Assembly: GCA_046594105.1 (NCBI GenBank)
Contig: JBKJQB010000024.1
Span: 1-63,568, forward strand
From: Thermoanaerobaculia bacterium
Lineage (GTDB): Bacteria; Acidobacteriota; Thermoanaerobaculia; Gp7-AA8
Reading direction: 5' to 3'
Length of the DNA: 63,568 nucleotides
Notes under the pieces: model-generated
Told to the model about the DNA's origin: nothing
Databases searched by the model: none
Seen by the model: only the letters and a program-made list of their open reading frames with translations
Position numbers and translations under genes: made by a program
Part shown: positions 5,546-29,858 of the stretch, piece by piece
Layout: every line of letters begins with the position of its first letter
Position numbering within the stretch: position 1 is the stretch's first letter

Positions 5546-6346
5546 ATGCAGACGCTGCTTGCCTTTTACGCCCTGGCCATCGGCGCAATCGTCGGCAGCT
5601 TTCTCAACGTGGTCATTCACCGGTACCCGCGTGAAGAATCCATCGCCTTCCCCGCCAGCCACTGTCCGCACTGCAACACGCCGATCCGCTGGTACGACAA
5701 CGTTCCCGTCCTCAGCTTCCTGATCCTGCGGGCACGGTGCCGCGCCTGTGCCGAACCGATTTCCGTCCGCTATCCGCTGGTCGAGCTGGCTAACGCGCTG
5801 CTCTACCTCGCCATTTTCCTGCGCACTGGTGCCACCCTCGGCTTCCTGCCGCTCGCCGCGGCTGCCTCGATGATCATCGCCCTCATCTACATCGATGCCG
5901 ACATCCAGATCCTGCCGGACGTCATCGACCTGCCGGGCATCCTGGTGGGACTTTTCGCAGGATGGCTCGGGCTGGGGACTCTCTATCCGGGACTGGTGCT
6001 GGCCACTTCCCTGCTCGACTCTCTCCTCGGCGCGCTCTTCGGCGCGTCGGTTCTTCTCGCCGTGATCGGCCTCTACTGGCTGGTGCGGCGGGTGGAGGGA
6101 ATGGGACAGGGCGACGTGAAGATGCTGGCCATGATCGGCGCCATCCTCGGCTGGCGCGCCGTGCCGGGCGTCCTGCTGGTGGCCTCCATCACCGGTGCGC
6201 TCATCGGCATTCCCGCAGCGATGCGCAGCGGCCGCGGGATGCAGCTGGCCATCCCGTTCGGCGTCTTCCTCGGATTCGCCATGCTGATCGTGCTGTTCTT
6301 CGGACAGACTCTGGCGGGCTGGTACCTTTCGCTGATCGTGCGGTGA
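5546..6346 (+). CDS. pilD: Prepilin peptidase / N-methyltransferase (peptidase A24)
   Basis: GSFLNVVIHRYP, Zn-binding CPHC and CRAC, catalytic Asp motifs (IDAD, GMGQGDVK), IPFGVFL. Confidence 0.96.
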   Translation: MQTLLAFYALAIGAIVGSFLNVVIHRYPREESIAFPASHCPHCNTPIRWYDNVPVLSFLILRARCRACAEPISVRYPLVELANALLYLAIFLRTGATLGFLPLAAAASMIIALIYIDADIQILPDVIDLPGILVGLFAGWLGLGTLYPGLVLATSLLDSLLGALFGASVLLAVIGLYWLVRRVEGMGQGDVKMLAMIGAILGWRAVPGVLLVASITGALIGIPAAMRSGRGMQLAIPFGVFLGFAMLIVLFFGQTLAGWYLSLIVR

Positions 6347-6465
6347 GGGGAAGTTGAAACCAGAAACCAGAAGGCTCGGAGCGGAGTCCGTCATCCTAAG
6401 CAGTGGACAGCGCGCGCGCTGCGCCTGAGAGAAAGAAACGGGGCGCGGAGGCAAAGCGCCGGAGG

Positions 6466-6652
6466 CGCGATTGACCTTAGCCCAGGACTTCAGTCCTGGG
6501 ACTTTGAGGGGCTCCCCCAGACGAGTCCCGGAGGGACGATTGACGATGCTTCGTTGCGACACTTTCAATCGTCCCTACGGGACTCACTCTTCAGGGGCAT
6601 CAAACCCAGGACTGAAGTCCTGGGCTAAGTTCAATCGTCCCTACGGGACTCT
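6466..6652. repeat. R4 palindromic element (CCCAGGACTGAAGTCCTGGG / CGTCCCTACGGGAC arms)
   Basis: Inverted copies TTAGCCCAGGACTTCAGTCCTGGG and CCCAGGACTGAAGTCCTGGGCTAA, plus three (T)TCAATCGTCCCT(A/C)CGGGACTC units. Confidence 0.85.
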
Positions 6653-6697
6653 CAAATCCGCATAAAACCTGGGAGTTTCTTGAAAGCTGGGAAACAG

Positions 6698-6806
6698 CAC
6701 GATGAGCCGATGAGTGGGCGATGAACGTGCGCTTCGTGGTTCTTGTGAGCGGAGCGAACGGAGCGCTGGCAGGATGCCGGCGCTCCGAAGGCAGCAAGAT
6801 CTCCCG
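6698..6806 (+). repeat. R2 repeat, internally deleted copy
   Basis: Both ends match the reverse complement of 43011-43204, but the central ~85 bp between the two GGAGCGCCGGC arms is missing. Confidence 0.85.
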
Positions 6807-6968: not shown

Positions 6969-8039
6969 CTACGAACTCGCCTTCTCGGCGTCCAGCGCGG
7001 CTTTGAACAGTTCTTTGTCGATGGCCTTGTCGTAAGCCGCGCGCGCGCTGACCTTCTTCGCTTCGAAGAGTTGCTTGATCGACGAGTCCATGTCGATCAT
7101 CCCTTCGCGGATGCCGGTCTGGATGGCGGAGGTGATCTGCGGCGTCTTTCCCTCGCGGACCATGTTCCCGATGGCCGGTGAGGCGAACAGGATCTCCAGG
7201 GCGGCCACGCGGCCTCCTCCGATTTTCGGCATGAGCTGCTGCGCCACGACGCCACGAATCGTTTCGCCGAGGACGTTGCGGATGCCTTCCTGCTCCCCGG
7301 CGGGGAACACGCTGATGATGCGATCCATGGTCTTGGCCGCGTTGTTGGTGTGCAGGGTGCCGAAGACCAGCGTGCCGCGCTCGGCGGCGCTCAGGGCCAT
7401 GGAGATGGTCTCCACGTCACGCATCTCTCCGACCAGGATGAGGTCGGGATCTTCGCGGCCGGCCGCCTTGAGCGCCTCGGAGAAACTGGCCGCGTGGGAA
7501 CCGATCTCCCGTTGATGGATCAGGCATTTTTTGTTCGGGTGCACGAACTCGATAGGATCTTCGATGGTGATGATGTGCAGACTGCGCGTCTCGTTGATCA
7601 GATCGATGATCGCCGCCAGCGTGGTGGACTTGCCCGATCCGGTCGGACCGGTCACCAGCACCAGCCCGCTGCGGAACTGCGCCACGCGCTTGACCTGAGG
7701 CGGCAGCCCCAGCTGGTCGATGGTCATGATCTTGGTGGGGATGACCCGGAAGACGGCACCGGCGCCTCGCTGCTGGCGGAACAGGTTGACCCGATAGCGG
7801 GCCACGCCGGGGATCTCGTAGGAGAAGTCGATGTCGCCGCTCTTCACATACTCAGCCCACAGCTTGGTCGCCGTGATGGGCTGCAGCATCTCCGTGAAGT
7901 CGGCCTCGGTGACCACGCGGTAGCGGATGGTCTCGATCTCGCCGGAGGCGCGCAGCATGGGGGGACGGCCCACGGTGAGGTGGAAGTCCGAGGCCCCGCG
8001 GTCATTCATCAGCTTGAGGAAGCGATCGATTTTCTGCAT
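6969..8039 (-). CDS. pilT: Type IV pilus retraction ATPase PilT/PilU family
   Basis: ASDFHLTVG, Walker A GPTGSGKST, TIEDPIE, Walker B PDLILVGEMRD, GTLHTNN, AIGNMVRE. Confidence 0.95.
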   Translation of the reverse strand: MQKIDRFLKLMNDRGASDFHLTVGRPPMLRASGEIETIRYRVVTEADFTEMLQPITATKLWAEYVKSGDIDFSYEIPGVARYRVNLFRQQRGAGAVFRVIPTKIMTIDQLGLPPQVKRVAQFRSGLVLVTGPTGSGKSTTLAAIIDLINETRSLHIITIEDPIEFVHPNKKCLIHQREIGSHAASFSEALKAAGREDPDLILVGEMRDVETISMALSAAERGTLVFGTLHTNNAAKTMDRIISVFPAGEQEGIRNVLGETIRGVVAQQLMPKIGGGRVAALEILFASPAIGNMVREGKTPQITSAIQTGIREGMIDMDSSIKQLFEAKKVSARAAYDKAIDKELFKAALDAEKASS

Positions 8040-8040
8040 G

Positions 8041-10545
8041 TCAGGAGCTCGCCTTCAGAAACTCTGCTGGCACCATCGATTCGAAATCCTCTTTCTTCAG
8101 CGCAGCCATGTACGCAGTCTCGCCGCTGATCTCGCCGCGCTTGACCAGATCGCGCAGCGCCTCGTCGAAGGTCTGCATGCCCAGGCTCTTGCCGATCTGC
8201 ATGGCCGAATAGATCTGGTAGGTCTTCTCGTCCCGGATCATGTTGGCGATGTTGGGCGTGCCTTTGAGCACTTCGAAGACCGCCACCTGCTTCCGTCCCT
8301 GCTTCGCCGGCAGCAGGCGCTGGGCGATGATGTATTTCAGCGACTCGGAGAGCGAAGCGCGGATCTGCGGCTGCTGATCGATGGTGAAGCTGGAGATGAT
8401 GCGGTCGATGGCTTTGGGGGCGCTGGTGGAGCTGAGGGTGCCCAGCACGATGTGACCGGTCTCCGCCGCCGTGAGGGCGAGCAACACCGATTCGTTGTCG
8501 CGCAGCTCCCCGATCACGATCACGTCGGGATCTTCGCGGAGAGCTGCTCGCAGGGCGCGGGCGAACGACTGGGTGTGCGATCCGATCTCCCGCTGGTTGA
8601 TCAGCGAATTTTTGAACGGATGCACGAACTCCACGGGATCTTCCATCGTCAGCACGTGCGCGTTGTGGGTTTCGTTGAACAGGTTGACGAACGCCGCCAG
8701 CGTGGTCGACTTCCCGGAGCCGGCAGGCCCGCAGATGATCACCAGCCCCTGGTGGTAGTCGGCGATCTCGGAGAGCTGCGCCGGCAATCCCAGCTCGTAA
8801 ACCGTCGGAGGCTTCTCCGCGATCACCCGGAACACCGCGTTATAGCCTTTGTGATCGAGGAAGACGTTCGCTCGATAACGGCCACCCTGCGGGATGTAGT
8901 ACGAGAAGTCGATCTGCCGCTTGGTCTGCAGCGTCTCCCATTGCGGTGCGGTCAGGATCTCCTTGATCATGGCCTCGGTCTGCGGTGCGGTCAGCGGCTC
9001 CGCCTGCGCCCGGATCAGATCGGCCGCCATGCGGATGATCGGCGGCTGGCCCACCGACAGATGGAAATCCGATCCGCCCTGATTGCGCGTGGCGATCAGG
9101 TAGCTGTTCAGTTGCGGCCCGCCCGCGGTTGCCTGCGCCACCAGCGCCGCAGCCCGGATCGCGCTGAGATCGGCCGTCGGGCCCTTCGATTTTTTCGCCG
9201 CGGCGTCGATCAGATCGAGAACACGAGTCTTCACGTTCCGATCGGGATCGTTGGTGGCCATCTGCGTGAGCGCCGTCAGCACCTGTGTATGAGGCATCAG
9301 GTGCAGCGCCTCGGCCACGGCGATGCGCACCTCCGCCTTCGGATCTCCCAGCAGCCGCCCCAGAGCGGGAAGCGCGCGCATATCCCCGATCTTGCCCAGC
9401 GCCTCAACCGCCGACCATTTCGCCTCGGGATCAGCCAGCGCTTCAACCAACGCGTCCACCGCACGCGGATCCTTCAGATTGCCGAGCGTGTCTGCAGCGG
9501 CCAGACGGATCCACCAGTCGTCATCCTTGAGCAAAGGGATCGTGGCCGGGACGATTCGCGGATCGTCGAACGCTCCGGCGACGGCCACCGCAGCCGAGCG
9601 GATTTCCGGATCGGCGTCCGAGAGCAACGCAATCACCGGCTCGATCAAGGCGGCGCCGAAGACTCTGAGGGACTCCAGCGCGCGCTCGCGCACGAAGCCG
9701 GCCAGCGTTTTGGAAAACTCGAGGTAGCGGCGGATGACCGGATCAGGGTCGCCCAGCCCCATCAGGATCTTCACCACCGTGGTGCGGATTCCCGCATCGC
9801 CCGAGGCGATCAAGGGCAGGAGTTGATCCACGATCTGCGGACCGGCCTGCGCTCCCAGCCGGGTCAGCCCGGCAATGATGGCCTGCTGCAGCGCGTACGA
9901 GGCGGTGGGGAGTTGGGCGACGAGGATTCCGGCGGAGGAGGGCGTGACGTTCGCGGCCAGCACCTCCAGCGACTTCTCCCGGATGAGAGGATCTTCATCT
10001 TTTGCCAGTTTCTGCCAACGGGCGATGGCCTTCTCGTCGATGGGCAGCGGAACCAGTTTCGCGATGTAGGCCAGTCGCTCTTCTGCCATGCCTGCGTCGG
10101 CCAGCTCCCAGAGGATCGGCTCCATCTGCTTGTTCACCGGCGCTTCCAGAAGGATCTTGCGGGCGATGCCCTGCATCTCCCGGATCGCCGGCGTGGACTT
10201 CTCCTCGAACTTCAGAACGGTGTCGGCCAGCCGGCGCTCCAGACCGGGCAGACCGAGCGCGAAGAGGAAGGGCACCGCGCCTCGCATGGCCACATCCGGC
10301 TTCCCTCTCGCTTCCCCGAGAAAGAGATCGACGGTCTCCGGGTCGCGCAGACGCTGCACCAGTTTGGCTCCCGCGTCGCGCACCGGACGGTCGGGTCGGA
10401 ACAGCATCCACATGACGTCGCGCGCCTTCAGTCCTTCCGCGGTGCTCAGCTGCGTGAGCATCGCGTCTCGTTCTTCCACTGAGCCGAAGCCGCGGTCCGC
10501 CGCCTTTTTCAAAGCTTCGCGGAGATCCGATCCGAACATTGCCAT
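8041..10545 (-). CDS. HEAT-repeat / PilT-ATPase fusion protein (834 aa)
   Basis: About 480 aa of HEAT/PBS-lyase-like helical repeats (e.g. DDDWWIRLAAADTLGNLKDPRAVDALVEAL), then a PilT domain (GPAGSGKST, TMEDPVE, PDVIVIGELRD). Start reassigned to ATG 10545. Confidence 0.88.
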   Translation of the reverse strand: MAMFGSDLREALKKAADRGFGSVEERDAMLTQLSTAEGLKARDVMWMLFRPDRPVRDAGAKLVQRLRDPETVDLFLGEARGKPDVAMRGAVPFLFALGLPGLERRLADTVLKFEEKSTPAIREMQGIARKILLEAPVNKQMEPILWELADAGMAEERLAYIAKLVPLPIDEKAIARWQKLAKDEDPLIREKSLEVLAANVTPSSAGILVAQLPTASYALQQAIIAGLTRLGAQAGPQIVDQLLPLIASGDAGIRTTVVKILMGLGDPDPVIRRYLEFSKTLAGFVRERALESLRVFGAALIEPVIALLSDADPEIRSAAVAVAGAFDDPRIVPATIPLLKDDDWWIRLAAADTLGNLKDPRAVDALVEALADPEAKWSAVEALGKIGDMRALPALGRLLGDPKAEVRIAVAEALHLMPHTQVLTALTQMATNDPDRNVKTRVLDLIDAAAKKSKGPTADLSAIRAAALVAQATAGGPQLNSYLIATRNQGGSDFHLSVGQPPIIRMAADLIRAQAEPLTAPQTEAMIKEILTAPQWETLQTKRQIDFSYYIPQGGRYRANVFLDHKGYNAVFRVIAEKPPTVYELGLPAQLSEIADYHQGLVIICGPAGSGKSTTLAAFVNLFNETHNAHVLTMEDPVEFVHPFKNSLINQREIGSHTQSFARALRAALREDPDVIVIGELRDNESVLLALTAAETGHIVLGTLSSTSAPKAIDRIISSFTIDQQPQIRASLSESLKYIIAQRLLPAKQGRKQVAVFEVLKGTPNIANMIRDEKTYQIYSAMQIGKSLGMQTFDEALRDLVKRGEISGETAYMAALKKEDFESMVPAEFLKASS

Positions 10546-10629
10546 GAAGGGACGGAGTATACGGTCTCTCTCCTGATCAAGGCGATGGTGTCCACCCGCG
10601 GGCCAACCCGTTTGGCCTACACTTTCGCG

Positions 10630-12339
10630 GTGGAGACTTCGGTTCAGGCACCGCTGACACGGATCGGATTCCGTCGCGACGTGCGACTGTTTCTCACCGG
10701 CCTGGTCGGCTTCCTGGTGGTCCTCATCTTCACGCTGCTGCTCCTGCTGCGGGCCAATCTGTCGAGCAGGGAGGAGTCCCTCCATCGCTCTCAGCAGATG
10801 ATTGCGGACGTGGCCGCGGAGAGCGTCAACCGCACCTCGGCCGGCCTCTCCGACCAGGGAGCGCAGCTACTCTTTCTGCGGGGACGGTTTGGAATCGCCG
10901 GCCTGGAAATCGTCCGCCGCGATGGAGGCCGGGTGGTGTCCGGCGCGCGGAGCGGCCAGTTTGACGAGGTGACCCGGCTGGTCGGGCCGGGCACGCTGCT
11001 GCTGCGCTTCGACTCCAGCCAGCGCCGCGAGGCTCACCGCGACTTTCTACTCACCGCCGCCATCTGCATCGCCGCGGCCAGCCTCGGTGCGAGCCTGCTC
11101 CTCTTCTATCTACCGCGCATCACCCGTCCCATCGAGGCCATGCTCGATCATGCCCGCGAGCTCGGCGCCCCGGGCGATCAGGAGGAGACGGCCTATCTCA
11201 TCGATACCTTCCGCAACTCGATTGCCACGCTGAAGACGCAGGAGGCCGAGCTCAAGCAACTCCACGATCGCGAGAAGACCCGCGCGGATGATCTGGAGCG
11301 GGTTACCGCTGCGCTCACCCGGAGCCTGACCTCCGGACTGATCGCCGTCGATGCCGATGGGTTCATTCTGGAGATGAATTCTGCGGGACGCGAAATCCTT
11401 CGCATCGACCCAGCGGCCCTGGTGAACGGAGGGAGGCTGGAGACCATCGTTCCCCTGACGCGTTTCCGGGGAGCGCTTGAGGATTCTTTCCGCGAACAGA
11501 GCGCGGTCAGTCGCATCGAGATCGAGGACGTGCATTCCGACGGCGACGCGGTCAGCATCGGCCTGACCACCGTCCCACTGCGCAACGAGTTTGAGACATT
11601 CCTCGGCTTTCTCGCGCTGTTCACCGACCTCACGCCGATTCGCAGTCTGGAGAGCCGCGTTCAGGACATGACCACGCTGGCCCAGCTCGGCGAGATCTCG
11701 GCGGGCATCGCGCACGAGTTCCGCAGCTCGCTCTCCACGATTCTCGGCTACACCCGACTGGCCCGGAAGGGAGGAGTGGGCGAGGTCGCCGAAGGCCGGC
11801 TGGCCAGCGCCGAGAAGGAGGCATCGCTGCTTCTGCAGGCCATCGAACGGTTGCTGGCCTTCGCGCGGCCCGTCCAGCTGCAGACGGAACCGCTCGACCT
11901 TCGAGAGCTCGTCAGCGAGCAGGTGCGCCAGTTCCACGAAATGGCTCCCGACGTCCCGGTGACCCTCTCCGGTCCTTCCGTAATGATCGACGGCGATCGC
12001 GTGCTGCTCAATCGAGCGGTGGAGAATCTGCTGCGCAATGCCGTCGATGCGGTGCGGGAAAAAGCCGACGGCGGCGGCGTTCAGGTGGCCATCTCGGAAA
12101 AACCAGTGCCCACACTGACCATCACCGATCAGGGAGTGGGCTTCGATCCATCGGAGACCGCGCGCCTTTTCCTTCCCTTCCAGTCGAACAAGCCGAATGG
12201 ATTCGGGATGGGGCTGCCCCTGGCGAAGAAGATCGTGCTGGTCCACGGCGGATCGATCCGCCTGCAGGGCCGCCCGGGCGAGGGCAGCGTCGCCGTGGTG
12301 GAGTTCGCCCCGGCTGCGCCAGCGTCCCCCACGGCGTGA
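10630..12339 (+). CDS. PAS-domain sensor histidine kinase, PilS/NtrB-like
   Basis: Two TM segments, PAS-like region, H-box IAHEFRS, N-box ENLLRNA, DQGVG, GFGMGL. GTG 10630 chosen because TACACT lies 6 nt upstream; the alternative is ATG 10585. Confidence 0.88.
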   Translation: METSVQAPLTRIGFRRDVRLFLTGLVGFLVVLIFTLLLLLRANLSSREESLHRSQQMIADVAAESVNRTSAGLSDQGAQLLFLRGRFGIAGLEIVRRDGGRVVSGARSGQFDEVTRLVGPGTLLLRFDSSQRREAHRDFLLTAAICIAAASLGASLLLFYLPRITRPIEAMLDHARELGAPGDQEETAYLIDTFRNSIATLKTQEAELKQLHDREKTRADDLERVTAALTRSLTSGLIAVDADGFILEMNSAGREILRIDPAALVNGGRLETIVPLTRFRGALEDSFREQSAVSRIEIEDVHSDGDAVSIGLTTVPLRNEFETFLGFLALFTDLTPIRSLESRVQDMTTLAQLGEISAGIAHEFRSSLSTILGYTRLARKGGVGEVAEGRLASAEKEASLLLQAIERLLAFARPVQLQTEPLDLRELVSEQVRQFHEMAPDVPVTLSGPSVMIDGDRVLLNRAVENLLRNAVDAVREKADGGGVQVAISEKPVPTLTITDQGVGFDPSETARLFLPFQSNKPNGFGMGLPLAKKIVLVHGGSIRLQGRPGEGSVAVVEFAPAAPASPTA

Positions 12340-12348
12340 GCGCTTCTC

Positions 12349-12404: not shown

Positions 12405-12433
12405 TTGACGTAAACTGTTGCAAGCCATGTAGT
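12405..12433 (+). promoter_or_regulatory. Sigma70-type promoter candidate
   Basis: TTGACG-N17-TGTAGT. Confidence 0.5.
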
Positions 12434-12452
12434 TGAAGGGCCACGCGTCGAG

Positions 12453-12468
12453 TGGCACCTGCGTCGCA
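12453..12468 (+). promoter_or_regulatory. Sigma54 -24/-12 promoter candidate
   Basis: TGGCAC-CTGCG-TCGCA: GG-N10-GC spacing is intact, one mismatch to TGGCAC-N5-TTGCW. The predicted start site would fall close to the ATG. Confidence 0.45.
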
Positions 12469-12483
12469 AAAGGGAGCATCCTC

Positions 12484-13059
12484 ATGAACAAGCAAGATGG
12501 TCGTTCGGAAGGCGGATACAGCATCGCAGAGTTGTTGACGGTGGTGGCCATCGTCGGCGTTCTCTCGCTGGTGACCGTGCCCTCCTTCATCGGTTACTTC
12601 AATTCCAACAAGGTGAAGGCGGCCATGCGCACCTTCAGCTCTGACCTGCGCACCGCGCGGTCCACCGCGATCAGCCAGAGCCGGGAAGTCAAACTCACGT
12701 ACAAGACCGGGACGAAACAACGGGCCTACGACCTGTATCTGGGCGACCGGGCCTTCGGGACCGTTCCCTCGGCGAACTGGACCCGCCTGACCGGACCAGG
12801 TTCCAACCCTCCAAAGCCCAGCAAGATCCTCGACGATGTCGTCTATTTCCCAGCGGACAGCGTGACCACGCCGCAGACGTTCACCGACCTGGATACCACT
12901 GCGGACGGCTGGCTGGACGTCATCTTCTTTCCTGATGGACATGCCCAGCTTCCGACGGCGGCAACCTCCGGGACCATCACCATCAAGACGGACATGAACG
13001 TGCCGAAGTCTTCCTACGCAATCACCATCAGCCCCAGTGGACGCGTTCTGGCGCAATGA
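12484..13059 (+). CDS. Minor pilin, FimT/FimU/GspH-like
   Basis: Class III signal GG|YSIAELLTVVAIVGVL; LRTARSTAISQ and ITISPSGRV are FimT-like motifs. Confidence 0.85.
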   Translation: MNKQDGRSEGGYSIAELLTVVAIVGVLSLVTVPSFIGYFNSNKVKAAMRTFSSDLRTARSTAISQSREVKLTYKTGTKQRAYDLYLGDRAFGTVPSANWTRLTGPGSNPPKPSKILDDVVYFPADSVTTPQTFTDLDTTADGWLDVIFFPDGHAQLPTAATSGTITIKTDMNVPKSSYAITISPSGRVLAQ

Positions 13060-13679
13060 GCCGGAGCAGCGAGGAAATGATGAAGAGACGAGAAGCGAGC
13101 GGCTACAGCCTGATCGAAGTCCTGATCGCCATCGCCATCACCAGCGTGGTGCTGCTGACGGTGATCACCCTGTTCTACATGGGGCGGCGCAACGTCTACA
13201 GCGGCAAGCAGCAGACCATCGCCGTCGCCTCGGGCACCCAGATTCTGGAAGACCTCTCCACCATGACAGCGCAGGATCTGGGATCCAACTTCAACATCAA
13301 TGACGGCACGGCGCTCAGCACGGTCACGCTGCAGGGAGTGGCGGATGGCGTGAACGGGCAGCTGGCCTTCACCAACAGCGTCGGCCGTGACTCCAGCAAC
13401 TGTACCGTCGCTTCGACGACCCCGTACGCCATCACCTGCACGGACGATCCGAACGGGTACATGACCAAATGGCTGCGATTGTTGTCGCCCGCCGGAGACC
13501 GGAACGAAGTGCTCACCAACCCGGTGGTCGGCCTCGTCTTGCGGCCCCGCAATCCCACCGATAACGCCAAGGCATTCAGCACCGCCCGGTTCATCCGGGC
13601 ACGCGTCTATGTCTCGTGGGAAGAAGCACAGAATCGTCGCCGCTACGCGTTCTTCGACACCACGAAAGTGAACCGGTAG
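13056..13679 (+). CDS. Minor pilin, PilV-like
   Basis: SG|YSLIEVLIAIAI prepilin motif; second position in the operon. Confidence 0.8.
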   Translation: MSRSSEEMMKRREASGYSLIEVLIAIAITSVVLLTVITLFYMGRRNVYSGKQQTIAVASGTQILEDLSTMTAQDLGSNFNINDGTALSTVTLQGVADGVNGQLAFTNSVGRDSSNCTVASTTPYAITCTDDPNGYMTKWLRLLSPAGDRNEVLTNPVVGLVLRPRNPTDNAKAFSTARFIRARVYVSWEEAQNRRRYAFFDTTKVNR

Positions 13680-13691
13680 CCAGGAGCAGCC

Positions 13692-16600
13692 ATGAAACCA
13701 ACCGCGCGTCACCAGCAACGGGGATTCACACTCGCAGAGATCCTGGTCACCACGGCGATCTTCGCCGTCATCATGATCGCCGCCCTTTCGGTCTACGACC
13801 AGAGCAACCGTGTGTTCAAGTCGGGAACCGAGTCGGCGGACATGCAGCAGAGCACACGGATCGGCTTCGACAAGCTGGTGGCCGATCTGCGCATGGCCGG
13901 CTTCGACTACAACCGCGGCGGCACTCCCACGAAGACCGGGGAATTTCCGCAACAGGACGAGCAGATCGAATACGCCGGCCCCACCGCGGTGGCCTTCCGG
14001 GGGAATTTCAATTACAACACCGCCTCGTCAAACGGAAACGGGCTGGAACCAACCTTCACTCCGAAGGATCCCACCACCAACGCGGCGATCTTCCCCTTCG
14101 TCACCACCAGCGATGACGAGATCGTCGCCTACGTCACCCGTTCCGCGGACAACACCCAGAACACCGGGTCCATCTCGTTCTACGTGGACGCCGGGAAACC
14201 CCGCAATGTGTATCCCGGCGGTGCCGCGGAAGCGCTGATCACCATCAGCAGCGCTCTCTGCGCCACCTGCGGCGTCGACACCAGCAATGCCAACCCTCCT
14301 TACACGCTGTATCGAATGACCCTGAACGACTACAAGAACCGGCAACCGGGAACGCCGATCGCCGAGAACATCCGCAGCCTCAACTTCTTCTACTACACCG
14401 ACGCGAATGGCCAGACGGTGCTCAAGAACAACGATGCCACGGACATCACCGCGACCCGGAATGCCGATGGCTCCACCGTCCCGGCCACGGCCTCGGTCAC
14501 CATTTTGAATTCCGACGGCACCACGTCGACCACCACCTCGAACACCGGGGCCATCGGAGGGGCGGGACAATACGACCCGGCCAGCCCCGGCACAGCGGCG
14601 AATTTCGTCGACCGGCAGCAGCGCACCACCATCCAGTCGGTGCGCGTGAATGTGATCGGCATGAATGCCAACCCGGAGCCGGGCTATACCCAACGCACCG
14701 AGTCCATCGCCCGCATCAAAAACTACCGGCAATACGCGCTGTCCGCCTTGATCGTGCCCCGGAACCTCGGACTGACCGGGTTCCCCGAGCCCAGCAACTC
14801 CGCGCCTTCGGTTCCGGTGATCACCGGCATCTGCACCGCGCACTGCGCCGCACCCGTCCTCTGCTGGGCCGCCCCGACCGGGGGCGGACCGGTCGATCAG
14901 TACCGCATCGAATGGGACAGCGTGGCCACAGGCTCCTTCCCCAACTCGCTCATCGTGACCGATCCCACCGTCACCACCGCGATCATCCGCGACAACGGCA
15001 TCATGGATCCGTCGATCACCTGGTATTACCGCATCTTCGCGCAGAACGACAACGGTTCGAGCCCGCCGCAAAACCCCACGCCGGCCCAGCCGAAGAACTC
15101 CACCCGGCCCCTGCCGCCCGCGCCCGGCACCATCACCACAAGCAACGCCGTGAATTACGCGGTGACCGTGGGATGGGTGGCCCCCTCCAACAACGACCCT
15201 GCCAAGGCCACCATGAACTGCACCGGGGCCGGCTGCAGCACCGATCCCAGCACCATCCCATCGCAGGAGATCATCAAGTACCGCGTGTATCGCGGGCTCA
15301 CTGCGACGTTTGATCCCACCAACCCTGCCGAGAGCTCCAAAGTCCTGGCCGCTACCACCGGTGTCCAGCCGACATCCGCAGGCCCCGGGTCGCCGATCTC
15401 CTGGGCAGATTCGCCGAGCACCTCGGCCTTCCCCTCTGGAACCTGCGTGGATTACTACTACCGGGTGCAGGCGGTGGATCGCTGCTTCTCCAGCAACAAC
15501 TACAACACCAGCGGCGACCTGAACGATTCGATCAGCACGATTTCACCGCCTCTCGGTTCGAATGCGATTCTGGGCCGGACGAACGACCTCTCCACGGCCA
15601 AAGCGCTGGGGCCGGTGAATCTGAAAGTGAGCAGCGCCACCTCTGCCTGCCCAGCACCCGCATCGCTCAACTGCAAGGTAGATTTGAGCTGGTCCAAGGT
15701 GACCGCCGACAATGCCGGCAACGCCATCGGCGTCGATAAGTACCGCCTGACCCGTTACCGAAAGAAGTATCTCGATCCTGGATTCGTACTCGACACCACG
15801 TTCAATCTCACCGGCTCGCTGGACATGCCTGGTTACTCGCAGAGCGGCACTGGCCTGGTTGGAAAAACCGACACGACCGGCCCCGCCATCGACACGGCAG
15901 ACGGCGCTCCCTGGTACTACCAATATACGGTCACCGCGAACGACTGCCGGCTGGGTCTTCCCTCCAATACGGCGGACTTCCCGACGTTGTGCGCGGGCAC
16001 TCCCTCCACAGTCAGCCAGGTCGGCGCTTCGGGCGGAGGCTCCGGTGACACCGTGGCCCAGGCCTGGGTCATGAATAGTGGGGACCTTCTCCGCATCACC
16101 GCTGCTGCGGGGTTGACCATCGCGAACGTCAAATACGATGTGTTCGCCTATCCCTCCGGTACGGTTGCGGACTCGGTGACCACAACAGCCTCACCGACCT
16201 TCCCCTACGTCTGGTCCGACCGCACCGACAACCAGATCTACCAGATCCGGATCGCCATCACCGACTCCACTGGCTGCACCGAGGTCCATGTGAAGTATGT
16301 GAAGGACGAGCAGGCTGCGCCCTGCGCGTTCGGCAACGTGGCCCTCACGGCATTCACCAGCACAACCTCCGGCCCGACCCGGTCGCTTTTCGAAACCTAC
16401 ACGGTGACGAACGTAGCCACGGAGGCACTGACCTTCAGCGCGAAGCCGATCAAAGTCACATGGGCTATCCCGGCCGGCTTCGCCGCCAGCCACAGCGACA
16501 TGACTCTCGATGACATCACCTACTCACTGGGTGGCTCCGACGGAGGCGCCAATTCGGGCCCCGGAACGGTCACCCGGTCAATCCCGGCCGCAGCGATCCT

Positions 16601-16796: not shown

Positions 16797-16808
16797 GAGT
16801 AGACGACA

Positions 16809-19429: not shown

Positions 19430-19722
19430 GGGGGTTCCAGCCCATGGTCAGCGCGTGCACCGCTCAGCAAAGAGACCCACAGGGGTTCCCGACGCAGTCG
19501 GCGAAACGCCGTGAGTCTGCCGGCGCAAGCCGGCAATAGGTCCGTAGACCCCGGCTTCAGCCGGGGGCGGTCGAGCTCCCGACCCTGCGGCGCTGCGGAA
19601 TCCGCCCCCTTCACCCACCGTTGTAAACTACTCCCCTCCCGCATGAGTCCCGGCGGGAAATCCCTCGGCAATCGGAACGTTTGGCATCATCGGCCGTCGT
19701 AAAGGCAGGCCACAGAAGGACA

Positions 19723-20931
19723 ATGCCCGAATTCATCATCAGAGCCGGAACGCCCGATGGGCAGATCGTGGAGCGCCACGTCCAGGCTCTGAATTCGCGT
19801 GCCGCCCAGGAAGAATTGACCCGCCAGGGCATGCATGTCTTCGAGGCCAAGCGCGGGACCATGCACCTGCGCGACCTCCTGCCGCGCGGCGGCAAGATCA
19901 TCTCCACCGAACGATTCCTCGTCTTCAATCAGGAACTGCTGGCCCTGGTCCGGGCCGGACTGCCTATCCTGCAGTCCTTCGACATCATGCTGGAGCGGCA
20001 GAAGAACCTGCGCTTCCGCGACGTACTCATCGACATCCGGGACAAGCTGAAGTCCGGCATCTCGCTGTCCGACGCCTTCGCCTCTTACGGCGACCAGTTT
20101 CCTGCCATCTACTCGACCTCCATCCGGGCGGGAGAGCGATCCGGCGACCTGGAGGGCGTGCTCAAGCGTTTTCTTCGTTACCAGAAGATCATCGTCAACC
20201 TGCGGAAGCGGGTCATCGGCGCAATGATCTACCCCGCAGTGCTGATCGTTCTGTCGGCGGCCATGGTGTTCATCATGCTGACCCGGGTCATCCCGAAGTT
20301 CGCGGAGTTCTACGCCGGGTTCGGTGCCGAGTTGCCCTGGTTCACCACTTTGATGATCAAGGTGGCCAACCTCCTGAATCAGAACCTGATTATTCTCGTC
20401 GTGGTCTCCGTCGTCGGATTCGTCTTTTTCCGGCGCTGGGCATCGACCACCGGTCGCCTGCTTTACGACCGTTTCAAACTGGGAATCCCCCTGGTCGGGG
20501 GGATCCTTCACCGCTTCGCCATTCTGCAGTTCACCCAGTCGCTGGGGACTCTGCTCTCGGGCGGCACTCCCATGGTCCCGGCCATCGAGATCGCCTCGCA
20601 GTCGGTCACCAATCAGCTGGTGGCCACCCGGATCTACAGCATCATCCAGAACGTCCGGAACGGCGAGCCACTGTGGCGCTCGCTGGAGAGCACCAACGCC
20701 GTGAGCGACCTCGCCGTCGAAATGATCAAGGTCGGAGAGTCCACCGGAGCCTTGACGGAAATGCTGTCCAACGTCAGCGAGTTCTACGACGAGGAGATCG
20801 AGGCGCGGCTCACTCGTCTGGTGGCGGCCATTGAGCCGCTCATCCTGGTCTTCATGGGCATCGTGATCGCCACGCTGCTCTACGCCTTCTATCTCCCTCT
20901 GTTCCAGCTTTCGTCAGTGACACAGCAATGA
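19723..20931 (+). CDS. pilC: Type II secretion F / PilC inner-membrane platform protein
   Basis: Two T2SSF domains (AGERSGDL..., VGESTGALTEML...EP). ATG 19723 with GAAGGA RBS. Confidence 0.93.
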   Translation: MPEFIIRAGTPDGQIVERHVQALNSRAAQEELTRQGMHVFEAKRGTMHLRDLLPRGGKIISTERFLVFNQELLALVRAGLPILQSFDIMLERQKNLRFRDVLIDIRDKLKSGISLSDAFASYGDQFPAIYSTSIRAGERSGDLEGVLKRFLRYQKIIVNLRKRVIGAMIYPAVLIVLSAAMVFIMLTRVIPKFAEFYAGFGAELPWFTTLMIKVANLLNQNLIILVVVSVVGFVFFRRWASTTGRLLYDRFKLGIPLVGGILHRFAILQFTQSLGTLLSGGTPMVPAIEIASQSVTNQLVATRIYSIIQNVRNGEPLWRSLESTNAVSDLAVEMIKVGESTGALTEMLSNVSEFYDEEIEARLTRLVAAIEPLILVFMGIVIATLLYAFYLPLFQLSSVTQQ

Positions 20932-20966: not shown

Positions 20967-22589
<1,623 letters not shown>

Positions 22590-24960: not shown

Positions 24961-25631
24961 TGGATTGGATGAGCTGGAAAACCTGGGGCATCATCGGGCT
25001 GGCGCTTCTGGCCGTCTTCGCCATCTATTCGTTCGCCGCCCCATCGGCCCCGGCGGAGTCCGCCATCGTTTCGTCAGAGACGGTGGGCCGGACTCCGGCG
25101 CGCTCGCCGCGCGTGACGGCCGCGCCGGCGCGTGGCGTCGGCGTCCTGCACAGCGAGTGGCTGGATAAAGTCACCGGCAGCTACCGGAGCGAGCGGAATC
25201 TGTTCTCCTACGTGGAGCCGCCCCCTCCCCCGCCTCCTCCACCGCCGAAGCCGCCCCCGCCTCCGCCCGACAAAGACAAGGACGGCATTCCCGACTTCAA
25301 GGACAACTGCCCTGACAAGGCCAACCCCGATCAGGCCGATATCGACGAGAACGGCATCGGCGACGCCTGTCAGGCCGGTGAGATCATCCGCAAGGTTCAC
25401 CTGCCGCCTCCGCCGCAGCCGCCGCCGTTCAGCTTCAAGTACATCGGGACCTTCGGAACGCCGTCGAGCCCGATTGCCACCTTCTCGGGCAACGGTGAGA
25501 TCGTCAACGTGCGTGTGGGGGAGACCTTCGCCGGGAAGTTCGTTCTGCGCAGCATCGGCATCGAGTCGGTGGAGATCGGATTCGTCGGCTTTCCCTCGGA
25601 CATCAAGACGCGCGTTCCTGTCGGAGAGTGA
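24957..25631 (+). CDS. PilP/GspC-like protein with a thrombospondin type-3 Ca-binding repeat
   Basis: N-terminal TM helix, RNLF, Pro-rich linkers, DKDKDGIPDFKDNCPDKANPDQADIDENGIGDAC, C-terminal HR/PilP-like domain (FKYIG...VRVGE). Confidence 0.7.
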   Translation: MMDWMSWKTWGIIGLALLAVFAIYSFAAPSAPAESAIVSSETVGRTPARSPRVTAAPARGVGVLHSEWLDKVTGSYRSERNLFSYVEPPPPPPPPPPKPPPPPPDKDKDGIPDFKDNCPDKANPDQADIDENGIGDACQAGEIIRKVHLPPPPQPPPFSFKYIGTFGTPSSPIATFSGNGEIVNVRVGETFAGKFVLRSIGIESVEIGFVGFPSDIKTRVPVGE

Positions 25632-25720
25632 CGTTTGGACCGTTTGGACCGTCAGAAGCAACGTGTGAGAGAGTGGCCCGGAACGGACACCCGCGCACAG
25701 GACTCAGGACTGAAAACGAA

Positions 25721-28207
25721 ATGAATCGACTGAAGATCGCAATCGCCGCACTGGCCGTCTCCCTTCCCCTGCTCTCGTGCGCCAGCTACAACGCGTACGA
25801 GAAGGCGAGAACCGCTGAGAAGCTGAAGAACTGGGACGACGCTGTCATCGAGTATCAGAAGGCGCTGGAAGTCGATCCGCAGAACCTTCGCTACCGGGTC
25901 TCCCTGCAACGGGCCAAGCTGGAGGCTTCCCGCGTTCACTTCGAGAAGGGCAAGACCCTGCGCACCGCGGCCATGCAGTCGGTCGGTCCGGACCAGCTCC
26001 GCCTGGCCCAGCTGGCATCCGCCGAGCTCGAGCTCACGGTGAAGCTGGATCCCTCCAACCAGTTCGCGGCCGTGGAACGCGACAAGGCGGTGGGAACGAT
26101 CAACGATCTGACCGTGCGCAACGATGCCACCCTCTCCATCGACGACATCAAGAAAAAAGCGCGCAACAACGTTTCCAAAGCACAGCCCCCCCAACTCAAC
26201 CCCGCCTCCGATCAGCCCATCTCTTTGAGCTTTCCGCGGGAGACTCCGATCAAGGAGATCTACAAGGCGCTGGGAAACGCATTCGGCATCAACATCCTCT
26301 TCGATCAGGCCATCAAGGACAGCGACCGGCTCTCCATCGAGCTCAAGGACGTCACCGCGCAGGAAGCTCTCGAGCGGGTCATGCAGGCGGTCAATCACTT
26401 CTACAAAGTGCTGGACTCCCACTCCATCATCGTGGTTCCGGACAACCCGCAGGCGCGCCGTGACTACGAGGATCTGGTCATCCGCACGTTCTATCTCTCC
26501 AACGGCGACGCCGAGCAGGTCACCAACGTGGTGCGGACCATGATCGAGGCGCGCAACGTGTTCCCGCTCAAGGCCCTCAACGCCATCACTATCCGGGACA
26601 CCGCCGACAAGGTGCGCATCGCCGAGAAGATCATTGAGGCGAACGACAAAGCGAAAGCGGAAGTGGTCGTCGACGTGGAACTGGTGCAGCTCGATCTCAA
26701 CCGCGGGCGGGACATGGGATTCGCCCTCAGCGCGCAGAGCGGCTCCATCCAACCGCAGGGCTCGGTCACAGACACCGCCGGCAAAACCACCGGCGGCACC
26801 ATCAGCTCCATCCTTCTGAGCCAGCTCAAGACCCTCGGCCACAGCGGGAACTACTCCATCACCCTGCCCACGGCCAGCTACGCGCTGCTGAAATCGATCA
26901 GCAACGTCTCCCTGCTGGCCAACCCCGAGTTGCGGATTTCCGAGGGGGAGAAGGCCACGCTGCACATCGGCAACCGCATCCCCGTTCCGGTCACCACGTT
27001 CACCACGGCGGTGCAGCAGAACAACTTCGGCAGCCTTCCGGCCACGTCGTACCAATACCAGGACATCGGCATCAAGGTGGCCATCGAACCGCGCGTGCAT
27101 CACAACCGCGAGGTCACGTTGAAGCTGACAGTAGAAGTCTCCAGCCAGGGTCCGGACGCCCCGGCACCGGCAGGTCAGATCGCCCAGCCGACCTTCATCA
27201 CACGCACCATCGAGTCGACCATCCGCCTGAAGGATGGCGAGACCAACTTCCTGGCGGGCCTCATCCGGGAAGACCAGACCAACTCCGATCAGAAGACGCC
27301 ATTCCTGGGCGACCTGCCGTTCATCGGCCGGCTGTTCACCCAGAACCGCCAGCTGTCGCTCAAAACCGACCTCATTCTGACCATGACTCCGCACATCATC
27401 CGGATCCCCGACATCACCGAGGACGATCTGGCGCCGATGTGGGTCGGAACGACCAACAATCTGACCTTCCGCGGGATGTCGCCACGGCTGGAGTCGCGAT
27501 CGGCAACCGATCCGTTCGTCAATCGCTCCTCGGCCAGCAGTCAGTTCGGCACCGACGCAGCGACCGGCCTGCCGCTCGCTGACGGAGAACCGGGCAATGT
27601 GGTCCGTCCTCAAGGCACCGGACCGATCGCACCGGGGACTGCGCCCAACGATAGGTTCCGCAATTCGCCTCCCCCACCACCGCCTGTCCGGCCTCCATCG
27701 AACAGCAGCCTGGTCTGGCCGAAGCCCGTGGGCAGCGAACCGGACGGAACTCTTGCGGCGGCGACGTCGAGATCCGCTTCGTCCGATTCCGATGGCCTCT
27801 CGCCGCGCATCTCGCCGCAACCGGTGCATCTGTCCCTTCGCAGCGGGGAAGAGAAACTGTGGACTGTGGTGGGCATGGACCTCGACGGTCTGAGCACGAA
27901 TCGAATCGTGCTCCACTACGACCCGCGCACGCTCGACGTTTCCGAGGTGTTGTTCGGGCCGGCACTGGCCATCGACATCAAGGTTCCTCCGGTGGTGGTC
28001 ATCGACCGCAACGGCGGAACGATCAAAATCACTTCCTCGAACGGTCAACCCCTGTTGTTCAAAGGCGGGGGAGACATCGCCATGCTGCGGGTGCACGGTG
28101 GCATCGGCGGAGAGACGTTCCTGGTGCTGGAGAATCCTGATTTGAAGAACGGTCACGGAGACACCGTGGCGTCGGCCGTCTCCGGAGGACGCGCGAAGGT
28201 CGAATGA
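25721..28207 (+). CDS. Secretin (GspD/PilQ family) lipoprotein with N-terminal TPRs and a C-terminal cohesin-like domain
   Basis: Lipobox LLSC, TPR-like helices, N domains, secretin core (LLANPELRISEGEKA...LGDLPFIGRLF...LILTMTPHII). Start reassigned to ATG 25721. Confidence 0.9.
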   Translation: MNRLKIAIAALAVSLPLLSCASYNAYEKARTAEKLKNWDDAVIEYQKALEVDPQNLRYRVSLQRAKLEASRVHFEKGKTLRTAAMQSVGPDQLRLAQLASAELELTVKLDPSNQFAAVERDKAVGTINDLTVRNDATLSIDDIKKKARNNVSKAQPPQLNPASDQPISLSFPRETPIKEIYKALGNAFGINILFDQAIKDSDRLSIELKDVTAQEALERVMQAVNHFYKVLDSHSIIVVPDNPQARRDYEDLVIRTFYLSNGDAEQVTNVVRTMIEARNVFPLKALNAITIRDTADKVRIAEKIIEANDKAKAEVVVDVELVQLDLNRGRDMGFALSAQSGSIQPQGSVTDTAGKTTGGTISSILLSQLKTLGHSGNYSITLPTASYALLKSISNVSLLANPELRISEGEKATLHIGNRIPVPVTTFTTAVQQNNFGSLPATSYQYQDIGIKVAIEPRVHHNREVTLKLTVEVSSQGPDAPAPAGQIAQPTFITRTIESTIRLKDGETNFLAGLIREDQTNSDQKTPFLGDLPFIGRLFTQNRQLSLKTDLILTMTPHIIRIPDITEDDLAPMWVGTTNNLTFRGMSPRLESRSATDPFVNRSSASSQFGTDAATGLPLADGEPGNVVRPQGTGPIAPGTAPNDRFRNSPPPPPPVRPPSNSSLVWPKPVGSEPDGTLAAATSRSASSDSDGLSPRISPQPVHLSLRSGEEKLWTVVGMDLDGLSTNRIVLHYDPRTLDVSEVLFGPALAIDIKVPPVVVIDRNGGTIKITSSNGQPLLFKGGGDIAMLRVHGGIGGETFLVLENPDLKNGHGDTVASAVSGGRAKVE

Positions 28208-28734
28208 GCTCATTCTCCTTTCCGCTCCGGAACGCCAGGTCCGTCCGGGAAACGAGTCCCCGGCCGAACGGCTTCACCATCGCCGAGTTGATCACGGTGG
28301 TGGCCATCATTGGAGTCCTGGCCTCCGTCGCCGTTCCGATCGCCAGCTTCGGGATCCGCCGGCAGAAGGAACTGGAATTGAGGGAGAAGCTTCGCCGGAT
28401 CACCGATGCCATCGATCGCTACCATGACCTCCGGCTGGGCGGCGCGTTGAATCCGACGCTGGGAATCAAGAAACCGCCTGACTTCGGACAGGGCGAATGG
28501 CCCAAGAATCTCGAGGAGCTGAGCAAGCCCATCGAGCTGGGAAACGGGAAACATGTGCGGTTTCTGCGCGAGCGCGATCTGATCGATCCGATGACGCGAA
28601 AGAATGACTGGATCACCCTCAGCATCAGCGACGATCCGGACAAGAGCGACTCCAACTCGGAGCAGGTCTTCGAGGTGCACTCTCGTTCCACCGCCCTGGC
28701 ACTCGATGGAAAGACGCACTACAACGAATGGTGA
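28204..28734 (+). CDS. GspG/PulG-like pseudopilin
   Basis: NG|FTIAELITVVAIIGVLA; KELELREKL...AIDRY; FLRERDLIDPMT. Confidence 0.85.
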   Translation: MSSFSFPLRNARSVRETSPRPNGFTIAELITVVAIIGVLASVAVPIASFGIRRQKELELREKLRRITDAIDRYHDLRLGGALNPTLGIKKPPDFGQGEWPKNLEELSKPIELGNGKHVRFLRERDLIDPMTRKNDWITLSISDDPDKSDSNSEQVFEVHSRSTALALDGKTHYNEW

Positions 28735-28768
28735 AACGAACTGCCTCAGCCCGCACGACCAAAAGCGA

Positions 28769-29221
28769 ATGATGACCAAACCGAAGATTCGACGCACCAT
28801 GCAGCAGGGATTCACGCTCATCGAGCTGATCGTCGTGGTGACGATCATCGGGATCCTGGCCGGCCTGGCCCTCACCAATGTGAGATGGGCGCAGCAGAAG
28901 GCGCGCGAGGCCGCTCTGCGCCATGACCTGTTCGAGCTGCGAAAAGGCATCGACGATTACTACGCGGACAAACAGAAGTATCCCGAGAATCTCGAAGCGC
29001 TGAAGGCCGCCCACTACCTCCGCAGCATTCCCAAGGACCCCATCACCAACGCGGCCGACTGGAAGGAAGAGGCGGTGCAGGTCGATCCCACCGGCAGCGA
29101 TCCGAACGCCGCTCCGGTCGACCCGACCATCCCTCAGGACAGCGGGCCGCCCGGCATCGGCGACGTCCACAGCAACGCGACGGGCAATGGGCTCGATGGC
29201 ACTCCCTACGCGAGCTGGTAG
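28769..29221 (+). CDS. GspG/OxpG-like pseudopilin
   Basis: QG|FTLIELIVVVTIIGILA; REAALRHDL...IDDYYAD...YLRSIPKDP. Confidence 0.88.
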   Translation: MMTKPKIRRTMQQGFTLIELIVVVTIIGILAGLALTNVRWAQQKAREAALRHDLFELRKGIDDYYADKQKYPENLEALKAAHYLRSIPKDPITNAADWKEEAVQVDPTGSDPNAAPVDPTIPQDSGPPGIGDVHSNATGNGLDGTPYASW

Positions 29222-29858
29222 CGATTCGGAGCGGGGCTTCACCCTCGCCGGCGTCATCGTGCTGATGACGCTGATGATGATCATCGTCGCCTACACCGTG
29301 CCGCGACAGTGGTCCGCGGTTCTGCAGCGGGACCGCGACCGCCAGACCATCTTCGCCATGCGCCAGTACGCCCGGGCCTGCCGCGAATGGAACAAGAAGC
29401 ACGCCGGCATCTATCCCACCAGCATCACTCAGCTGAAAGAAGCGCGCTCTCCTCGTTTCATGCGCGGGGTCAAGAGCGAGATGATCGATCCCCTGACCGG
29501 ACAGGTGGACTGGCTGATCATTCCGCAGGCCGCCGCAACCCAGCCGGGCGCACCGGGTCCCGGCAGCCCTCCCCCAACCGGCGGCCCCGCACCCACCACT
29601 CCGACCGGATCACCCACCCAGCCGGGCCTCGGACAACCCACGCTGCCGAATGGCCAGCCCGCCACTCAAGCCCTGCCGGGCGTCCCGATGAAAGACTACG
29701 CTGGCGGCCCCTTCGTCGGCGTGCGCCCCCCGAAAACCGGCAAGAGCATGCTGCGGCTCAAGGACGCCGACACCTACGAAACCTGGATGTTCACGGCCCT
29801 GGACCTCGAGCAGGAAATCGCCGCGAGAATGGCGGCCATGAACAATCCCTGGAAGTAG
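29187..29858 (+). CDS. Glu5-less pseudopilin (GspK-like position)
   Basis: RG|FTLAGVIVLM with Gly in place of Glu5; DP(L)TG and W.F motifs. Confidence 0.72.
   Translation: MGSMALPTRAGSDSERGFTLAGVIVLMTLMMIIVAYTVPRQWSAVLQRDRDRQTIFAMRQYARACREWNKKHAGIYPTSITQLKEARSPRFMRGVKSEMIDPLTGQVDWLIIPQAAATQPGAPGPGSPPPTGGPAPTTPTGSPTQPGLGQPTLPNGQPATQALPGVPMKDYAGGPFVGVRPPKTGKSMLRLKDADTYETWMFTALDLEQEIAARMAAMNNPWK

Follow-up and report, generated by a model that had tools for sequence, protein, structure and literature searches.

The 63,568-nucleotide window analyzed here is contig C149 of the 4.29-Mb assembly of an uncultured Thermoanaerobaculia bacterium of the phylum Acidobacteriota (370 contigs, 63% G+C, 94.75% complete). 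Positions 5,546–29,858 of the window form a 24-kb "super-locus" of genes for type-IV-filament proteins, which probably consists of two modules adjoining each other and does not encode a single hybrid machine. Module A (5.5–19.4 kb) is composed of genes for the prepilin peptidase PilD, two PilT-family ATPases, a sensor kinase, and four minor pilins (H, I, J, and K). Module B (19.7–29.9 kb), a core of 10 genes, encodes a platform protein (F), an assembly ATPase (E), proteins in the positions of PilM, PilN, PilO, and PilP (M, N, O, and P), a secretin, and the pilins G1, G2, and X. The two modules are inherited independently, and a terminator-like hairpin lies between them. The locus is mostly ordinary, apart from the pair of PilT-type motor proteins, which seems to be undescribed.

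The genes were identified by Pfam and NCBIfam scans, with the NCBIfam equivalog and subfamily cut-offs applied. The scans bear out the gene content that a preliminary description, made from the sequence alone, gave for this region, as every gene on its list is present where it had been placed. Two items are added to that list: HEAT repeats of ~470 residues on the second PilT, and the PAS-HisKA-HATPase kinase. The preliminary description also considered that one machine may both secrete and retract. This idea is not supported, since a canonical type IVa pilus (T4aP) core is located on other contigs, and modules A and B are found separately in other genomes.

Modules A and B occur separately in related bacteria

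The inventory of relatives comprised 121 genomes belonging to the order; in addition, 151 Acidobacteriota genomes were searched with a profile of the PilM-like core protein of module B. The PilM-like protein is a single-copy marker of the core in 116 of the 121 genomes of the order. Across the phylum, the profile matches 112 of the 151 genomes, mostly in one copy, and it skips the canonical PilM of the genome studied here. The order F-E-M-N-O-P-secretin-G1-G2-X is kept in four distant families, in which the 10 kb upstream of the core contain no genes for PilD, the kinase, minor pilins, or PilT.

Module A, which is class-wide, is likewise found by itself. In the sister families f6 and f10, one to three pilin genes are followed by PilD and the kinase, then by PilT and HEAT-PilT in the reverse orientation, and finally by H-I-J-K. 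No core genes are present in the 20-kb module A pieces of these families, and the core marker is located on the same contigs at a distance of 110 kb to 2.3 Mb. In f5 and f9, the pilins, kinase, and minor pilins are free-standing, accompanied by PilD in f9. The pilins of module A in the sister families are full-length relatives (40–58% identity) of pilins encoded on contigs C39, C210, and C235 of the genome studied here, and align to G1 and G2 of module B in the N-terminal helix only. PilA-type pilins are thus the companions of the PilT pair, of PilD and the kinase, and of H-I-J-K, and the pair and the minor pilins most likely serve a PilA-type pilus and not the Pul-type core.

About a dozen relatives within the order share the arrangement ExbD-ExbD-PilD-kinase-H-I-J-K, a variable segment, and F-E-M-N-O-P-secretin-G1-G2-X-M16 peptidase. 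Judged by gene order, the adjacency of modules A and B is a derived feature of this order. A HEAT domain match is present in 70 of the 121 genomes of the order and absent from the other 51, compared with the core marker in 116, and HEAT-PilT is therefore dispensable for module B. In most f1 genomes, the pair is encoded outside the cluster, in an operon consisting of the HEAT-PilT gene and that of its partner.

The hairpin separating the modules, which resembles a very strong terminator, is positioned directly 3′ of the last minor pilin gene; a scan for consensus promoters was uninformative. In relatives, unrelated inserts of 3–4.6 kb are located between the last minor pilin gene and the platform gene; those of G003, G017, and G010 encode response regulators, a GGDEF protein, and, in the opposite orientation, a membrane protein of 1052–1153 residues. 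The terminator and the unrelated inserts indicate that no operon spans the A–B junction. The junction is an insertion hot spot, which in G017 additionally holds an extra FimT-like pilin gene.

Genes of a canonical type IVa pilus are located on other contigs

Against 11 ATPases of the T2SSE family, the genome has only two platforms and two secretins. Contig C163 contains pilB (TIGR02538, 805 bits against a cut-off of 676), pilT (504 bits), pilC, and the gene of a PilS-type kinase. Contig C96 contains pilM (PilM_2, 251 bits), pilN, pilO, pilP, and the gene of a PilQ with an AMIN domain (354 bits, cut-off 284). Together, the two contigs provide every component by which a T4aP was recognized, namely PilB, PilM_2/PilN/PilO/PilP, and an AMIN-domain PilQ; the proteins of module B match none of these models above cut-off. 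The window encodes no PilA-type pilin, as the preliminary description had noted, and candidates for this pilin are those on C39, C210, and C235. According to the preliminary description, a complete separate T4aP locus accounting for pilT and the minor pilins would leave an ordinary type II secretion system (T2SS) in the window. The separate pilus is largely there; what is left in the window, however, is an atypical system of the Pul type and not an ordinary T2SS.

Further filament genes are scattered over the assembly. A trio of small minor pilins (~137–196 residues), the last of which is devoid of Glu5, is encoded at positions 11408–12778 of contig C9, outside any pilus cluster. A FimT/GspH-like gene is located at the end of contig C223 (3–692). 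Contig C85 (37171–41514) contains two adjacent orphan genes for PilB/GspE-type ATPases with no platform gene nearby; one of the products has 793 residues and an N-terminal GAF domain, and the other, 600 residues long, scores best on the TfpB model.

Module B has the gene order of the Pul system

The gene order of module B and its lipoprotein secretin equal those of the published Pelobacter/Geobacter Pul cluster, pulF-E-M-N-O-P-Q(lipoprotein)-G-oxpG (PMC3543383 Table S4). The F-E-M-N-O-P-Q-G-G order of the PulG/OxpG cluster, which the preliminary description had named, agrees with the published one. Based on the gene order and the lipoprotein secretin, we assign module B to the Pul-type atypical T2SS-like systems. 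Module B shares further traits with Pul of Geobacter sulfurreducens and Pelobacter carbinolicus: the annotation of the secretin is that of a lipoprotein, the cluster contains two or three pseudopilins and no PilT, and DNA-metabolism genes are nearby (recN here). Module B differs from Pul in its acidobacterial host, in the TPR and the ~260-residue C-terminal extension of its secretin, and in the thrombospondin-type Ca2+ repeat of the PilP-position protein. Geobacter Pul/OxpG is reported to be required for the secretion of OmpB (PMC3543383). By analogy, module B would have a role in secretion; no OmpB-like gene was seen here.

Module B shares with the canonical Gsp/Pul/Eps T2SS (gspC-O of E. coli K-12, Eps of Vibrio) the ATPase, platform, and secretin, a candidate GspG-like major subunit, the dependence on a prepilin peptidase, and a core without PilT. 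The literature supports a loss of PilT from T2SSs (PMC6668835), in agreement with the statement of the preliminary description that these systems are devoid of PilT. Module B has no retraction ATPase of its own, as the core is free of PilT in the four distant families, and the PilT pair follows module A when the modules are apart. Unlike in the canonical T2SS, PilM and PilN are split and there is no fused GspL, a PDZ-domain GspC was not found, the genes are ordered differently, the equivalog cut-offs are missed, and the ATPase is positioned outside the clade of E. coli and Vibrio GspE.

All NCBIfam equivalog cut-offs are missed by the proteins of module B, the Pfam families PilM_2, PilN, PilO, and PilP are unmatched, and the secretin has no AMIN domain. 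The platform protein scores 286 bits on the GspF model and 266 bits on the PilC model, each under its cut-off. The ATPase scores 539 bits on the GspE model (TIGR02533, cut-off 630.25) and 531 bits on the PilB model (cut-off 676), and its PDB matches reach 426 bits to PilB versus 347 bits to GspE. An ATPase tree was calculated with references comprising E. coli GspE and HofB, Vibrio GspE, PilB or PilF of Myxococcus, Geobacter, and Thermus, and the paralogues of the genome itself. The core ATPases form a clade with support of 100/100 and a long stem, outside both the GspE clade (E. coli and Vibrio) and the canonical PilB clade. In the best tree they group weakly with PilB (60/82), and placement with GspE is not rejected (approximately unbiased test, p = 0.34). 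Owing to the unresolved backbone of the tree, module B is not assignable to T2SS or T4aP from its ATPase.

The preliminary naming of the four genes downstream of the ATPase as pilM-N-O-P was positional, and it holds to different degrees. The 298-residue protein has the PilM fold. Its AlphaFold2 model (mean predicted local distance difference test score, pLDDT, 90.9) matches PilM of M. xanthus and T. thermophilus with template modeling scores of 0.81 and 0.78, respectively (Foldseek), and the cytoplasmic domains of GspL with a score of ~0.5. The 191-residue protein has a PilN-like motif, HLNLAxRP, at its N-terminus. The 210-residue protein has a weak GspM match, and its family profile weakly matches the PilO reading frame of the genome itself (E = 0.0047); a PDB profile search with this family returned nothing useful. 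The assignment of the 224-residue protein follows from its architecture, composed of a transmembrane anchor, polyproline linkers, a thrombospondin type-3 (TSP3) Ca2+ repeat, and a small C-terminal β domain. The TSP3 repeat is located between the polyproline runs and is kept in all nine aligned sequences (the window and eight orthologues). Pfam and PDB profile searches with the 224-residue protein gave no T2SSC or PDZ match, and the PDB matches were to TSP3 repeats only. Profile hidden Markov models of the M, N, and P families have no match among the canonical PilMNOP genes of the genome, because the proteins are too divergent for the method.

The secretin scores higher on the GspD model (154 bits, cut-off 351) than on the PilQ model (106 bits, cut-off 284), and both cut-offs are missed. 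The lipobox cysteine is present in the secretin orthologues. The extension of ~260 residues past the secretin domain (~27430–28207) has a weak cohesin-like match, and the alignment with the G031 orthologue stops at residue 624. The alignment of G2 contains a GspG-like globular motif, and among its PDB pilin matches only the GspG entries (5wda, 48 bits; 3g20) reach the globular part, through profile position 92. The pilin-like protein X had been described as GspK-like, a designation that rests solely on the missing Glu5. Just downstream of the core, a gene for an M16-family peptidase is located on the reverse strand (30072–31460). It occupies this place in the family and also in a distant acidobacterial family (G220), and the peptidase may be a conserved partner or a cargo-processing enzyme.

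Module A resembles accessory loci of type IVa pili

Module A is similar to the scattered accessory loci of the T4aP of P. aeruginosa, M. xanthus, and Geobacter (fimS-algR/fimU-pilVWXY1E and pilT-pilU loci): the kinase gene is located beside those of FimU/PilV/PilW/PilX-type minor pilins, PilD is beside pilins, and the PilT-family ATPases are in tandem. In contrast to these loci, module A has no PilY1, the pilins in the positions of PilW and PilX are giant (1034 and 857 residues), one of the two tandem ATPases carries a fused HEAT-repeat domain, and the kinase has no adjacent response regulator.

PilD heads module A in relatives as well. A tblastn search over the assembly found no second prepilin peptidase, and as the only one found, PilD presumably processes the pilins of both systems. 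The position of the kinase between PilD and the minor pilins is kept across the class, and a weak terminator-like site overlaps the 3′ end of the kinase gene (12333–12353). The minor pilins H-I-J-K span positions 12433–19382 of the forward strand. The 1034-residue pilin has weak NCBIfam matches to GspJ and to the N-terminus of cassette protein C, and is kept in relatives. Homologues of the 857-residue pilin are labeled "PilX N-terminal domain-containing". The AlphaFold2 model of this pilin (pLDDT 82.9) has a large β-rich body, for which no fold match was found in the PDB at E ≤ 0.001; a family-profile search of the PDB was also unhelpful.

The PilT pair of module A has coupled substitutions in the HIS box

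The PilT pair consists of a fusion of HEAT repeats to PilT (HEAT-PilT) and a 356-residue partner (PilT356). HEAT-PilT has ~834 residues when translated from Met81 of its 914-residue open reading frame, a start deduced from the orthologues, and the HEAT part accounts for ~470 of them. Both proteins score above the cut-off of the PilT/PilU subfamily (319 bits) and have intact Walker A, Walker B, and Asp boxes. Neither contains an intact HIS box (T221...H230). In PilT structures, T221 touches H230 of the neighboring subunit. The motif of HEAT-PilT in f1 and f8 is ETGHIVLGTL(S/N)S, in which H230 is lost and N is the commonest residue among the orthologues. The corresponding motif of the partner is E(R/K)GTLVFGTLHT, in which T221 is replaced, H223 is changed to threonine, and H230 is kept. 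In f6, f10, and f70, the HIS box of HEAT-PilT is canonical and the partner reads ETGL...TLHT. The coupled changes, H230 to S/N in the fusion with T221 to R/K and H223 to T in the partner, are confined to f1 and f8. H230 is the γ-phosphate-coordinating histidine reported to be conserved in all PilT/VirB11 family members, and the substitution H229A in P. aeruginosa PilT abolishes twitching (PMC6858323).

Orthologues of PilT356 (83–89% identity) are confined to genomes with HEAT-PilT, and the pair is gained and lost together. Taken together, the coupled changes, the strict co-occurrence of the two genes, and their organization as an operon suggest that the proteins may contact each other directly in a heteromer. 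This hints at a heteromeric PilT-family motor, perhaps a heterohexamer. PilT and PilU are described as homohexamers (PMC6821130). The pair resembles PilT and PilU in its tandem genes, in the match of both products to the PilT/PilU subfamily model, and in joint gain and loss. It differs from them in the N-terminal HEAT domain of one partner and in the coupled HIS-box substitutions, H230 to S/N in one protein and T221 to R in the other. Literature searches on the HEAT-PilT fusion and on Thermoanaerobaculia pili turned up no relevant description, and the pair appears to be undescribed.

The genome contains seven PilT-family paralogues in its 4.3 Mb (C163, C192, C6, C159, C84, and the window), and its relatives contain four to eight. 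A 947-residue exported protein is encoded at positions 46006–48849 of the reverse strand of the window. Its N-terminus resembles that of a 1649-residue protein encoded ~2 kb from the PilT pair on another Thermoanaerobaculia contig.

Table 1 Features of modules A and B and of the junction between them.
Feature	Position	Strand	Evidence and remarks
PilD prepilin peptidase	5546..6346	+	Pfam A24_N_bact 7.8e-37, Peptidase_A24 1.6e-15
PilT-family ATPase PilT356 (356 aa)	6969..8039	-	TIGR01420 434 bits, cut-off 319; HIS box ERGTLVFGTLHT (T221→R, H223→T)
HEAT-repeat::PilT fusion	8041..10545	-	Pfam HEAT_2 8.9e-40, T2SSE 3.3e-39; TIGR01420 412 bits; HIS box ETGHIVLGTLSS (H230→S)
PAS-HisKA-HATPase sensor kinase	10585..12339	+	Pfam matches; response regulator not adjacent
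GspH/FimU-type minor pilin (H)	12433..13059	+	Pfam GspH 1.2e-9; prepilin motif GYSIAEL
PilV/GspI-type minor pilin (I)	13056..13679	+	N_methyl 1.4e-6; weak PilV and GspI matches below cut-off
Giant 1034-aa prepilin-type minor pilin (J), PilW/GspJ position	13692..16796	+	N_methyl 5.4e-7; weak fn3
Giant 857-aa PilX_N/GspK-type minor pilin (K), without Glu5	16809..19382	+	Names of homologues, some with PF14341
Intrinsic-terminator-like hairpin	19395..19424	+	13-bp stem, 12 G-C pairs, T5 tail
GspF/PilC-type platform (F)	19681..20931 (start likely ~19723)	+	Pfam T2SSF x2, 6.1e-52
Assembly ATPase (E), distinct clade	20967..22589	+	T2SSE 5.9e-130, MshEN
PilM-fold cytoplasmic protein (M), 298 aa	22863..23759	+	No Pfam match; profile match to PilM 2ych, 6.8e-13
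PilN-like bitopic protein (N), 191 aa	23756..24331	+	N-terminal K-P-I-H-L-N-L-A-x-R-P motif, transmembrane segment, position
PilO/GspM-like protein (O), 210 aa	24328..24960	+	T2SSM_b 3.3e-4; GspM 1e-6, 28.5 bits, cut-off 60
PilP/GspC-position protein (P), 224 aa	24957..25631	+	Assigned from architecture; TSP_3 1.8e-6
Secretin lipoprotein	25628..28207	+	Secretin 8.7e-40, Secretin_N, N-terminal TPR; without AMIN
Pilin G1	28204..28734	+	N_methyl; GFTIAEL motif; kept across phylum
GspG-like pilin G2	28772..29221	+	TIGR01710 47.7 bits, cut-off 88.85
Pilin-like protein without Glu5 (X), 223 aa	29187..29858	+	GFTLAG...; last core gene in distant families

Proposed roles of the modules and alternative explanations

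We consider it likely that module B forms a non-retracting fiber of G1 and G2, that module A serves the PilA-type pilus encoded on C163 and C96, and that PilD serves both systems. The ATPase and platform of module B would polymerize a short G1/G2 fiber, with the Glu5-less pilin as its cap. By analogy to Geobacter Pul, the fiber would drive proteins through the TPR-bearing lipoprotein secretin, with no retraction ATPase involved. The PilM, PilN, PilO, and PilP-like proteins may form the alignment complex of module B. The products of module A would act in trans with pilB-pilT-pilC and pilMNOPQ on the other contigs. The four minor pilins, two of them giant, may be priming or tip pilins of the PilA-type pilus, and the PilT pair may function as accessory ATPases akin to PilU, in retraction or in regulation. 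PilD would mature the pilins of both systems.

Several observations weigh against this division of roles. Modules A and B are adjacent in all three sampled families of the order (f1, f2, and f3), and the adjacency could reflect functional coupling instead of inheritance. Where the PilT pair of f1 is not dispersed, three arrangements occur, each of which places it at the A–B boundary or close to it. In the genus g40, the HEAT-PilT gene precedes the platform gene by ~150 bp in the same orientation and could be co-transcribed with module B, and in the genera g17 and g18 the pair and the platform gene are transcribed away from each other. Module A carries no platform of its own, and we infer the one it uses to be encoded elsewhere. 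The likeness of module B to Pul is one of gene order and secretin annotation. The assembly is fragmented, and the trio on C9 together with the C223 gene could be the minor pilin set of the T4aP, which would free H-I-J-K for module B. Repeated independent recruitment of the PilT pair to the Pul-type core, in four genera and three positions, was considered and rejected, since class-level synteny puts the pair ancestrally in module A. Local rearrangements, either within module A or at its margin, better explain the varied positions of the pair.

If the adjacency were functional, the Pul-type core would have come to employ H-I-J-K as giant tip pilins, together with HEAT-PilT and its partner, and would build a retractile fiber for secretion or adhesion. 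This hybrid, which corresponds to the reading of the preliminary description, would account for the A–B adjacency in the three families, for the placement of the pair next to the platform gene in g40, g17, and g18, and for the absence of H, I, and J-type minor pilins from module B itself. It is nonetheless unlikely, because both modules are conserved separately elsewhere, the junction contains a terminator and unrelated inserts, the HEAT domain is missing from many genomes that have the core, and module A accompanies PilA-type pilins in sister families. An elaboration of the hybrid, in which the core of this order is primed by H-I-J-K and reversed by a dedicated motor of HEAT-PilT and PilT, which the coupled T221/H230 substitutions suggest to be an alternating heterohexamer, yielding a retractile secretion or adhesion fiber, appears similarly improbable. 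The alternative that module B is a second genuine surface pilus of G1 and G2, with a role in adhesion, DNA uptake, or electron transfer and not in secretion, bears on function alone and would fit the presence of two modules. It draws on the split PilM/PilN/PilO/PilP architecture and the PilM fold, on the weak grouping of the ATPase with canonical PilB and its higher PDB score to PilB, and on the branching of the so-called Bacteroidetes T2SS with T4aP (PMC6668835). The GspG-like globular motif of G2, the secretin with its preference for GspD over PilQ and without an AMIN domain, and the core without PilT in the four distant families examined speak against a surface pilus, and the experiments available for this gene order, all of them on Geobacter Pul/OxpG, favor secretion. 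We regard a second pilus as possible but rather doubtful.

Because their HIS boxes are degenerate, HEAT-PilT and PilT356 might serve as regulators or scaffolds and not as retraction motors, and could, for instance, form a sensor module with the adjacent kinase. HEAT-PilT lacks the histidine that coordinates the γ-phosphate, whose P. aeruginosa counterpart is needed for twitching (PMC6858323), it is fused to a protein-binding HEAT domain, and the pair always adjoins the sensor kinase in sister families. On the other hand, the Walker A, Walker B, and Asp boxes are intact in both proteins, PilT356 retains H230, the HIS box of HEAT-PilT is canonical in f6, f10, and f70, and both proteins score above the PilT/PilU subfamily cut-off. 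A non-motor role is a tentative and, in our judgment, somewhat unlikely explanation.

Implications for type-IV-filament systems

Loci of the "hybrid T2SS/T4P" kind are easily over-read from adjacency, and comparative synteny resolves the one described here into two units, each with a history of its own. The findings leave intact the rule that PilT is absent from T2SS-type systems. The PilM-like core protein is a usable marker for the Pul-type system, which is near-universal but unstudied in Acidobacteriota. HEAT-PilT and its obligate partner represent a variant of retraction-motor paralogues, and make a heteromeric motor a concrete hypothesis.

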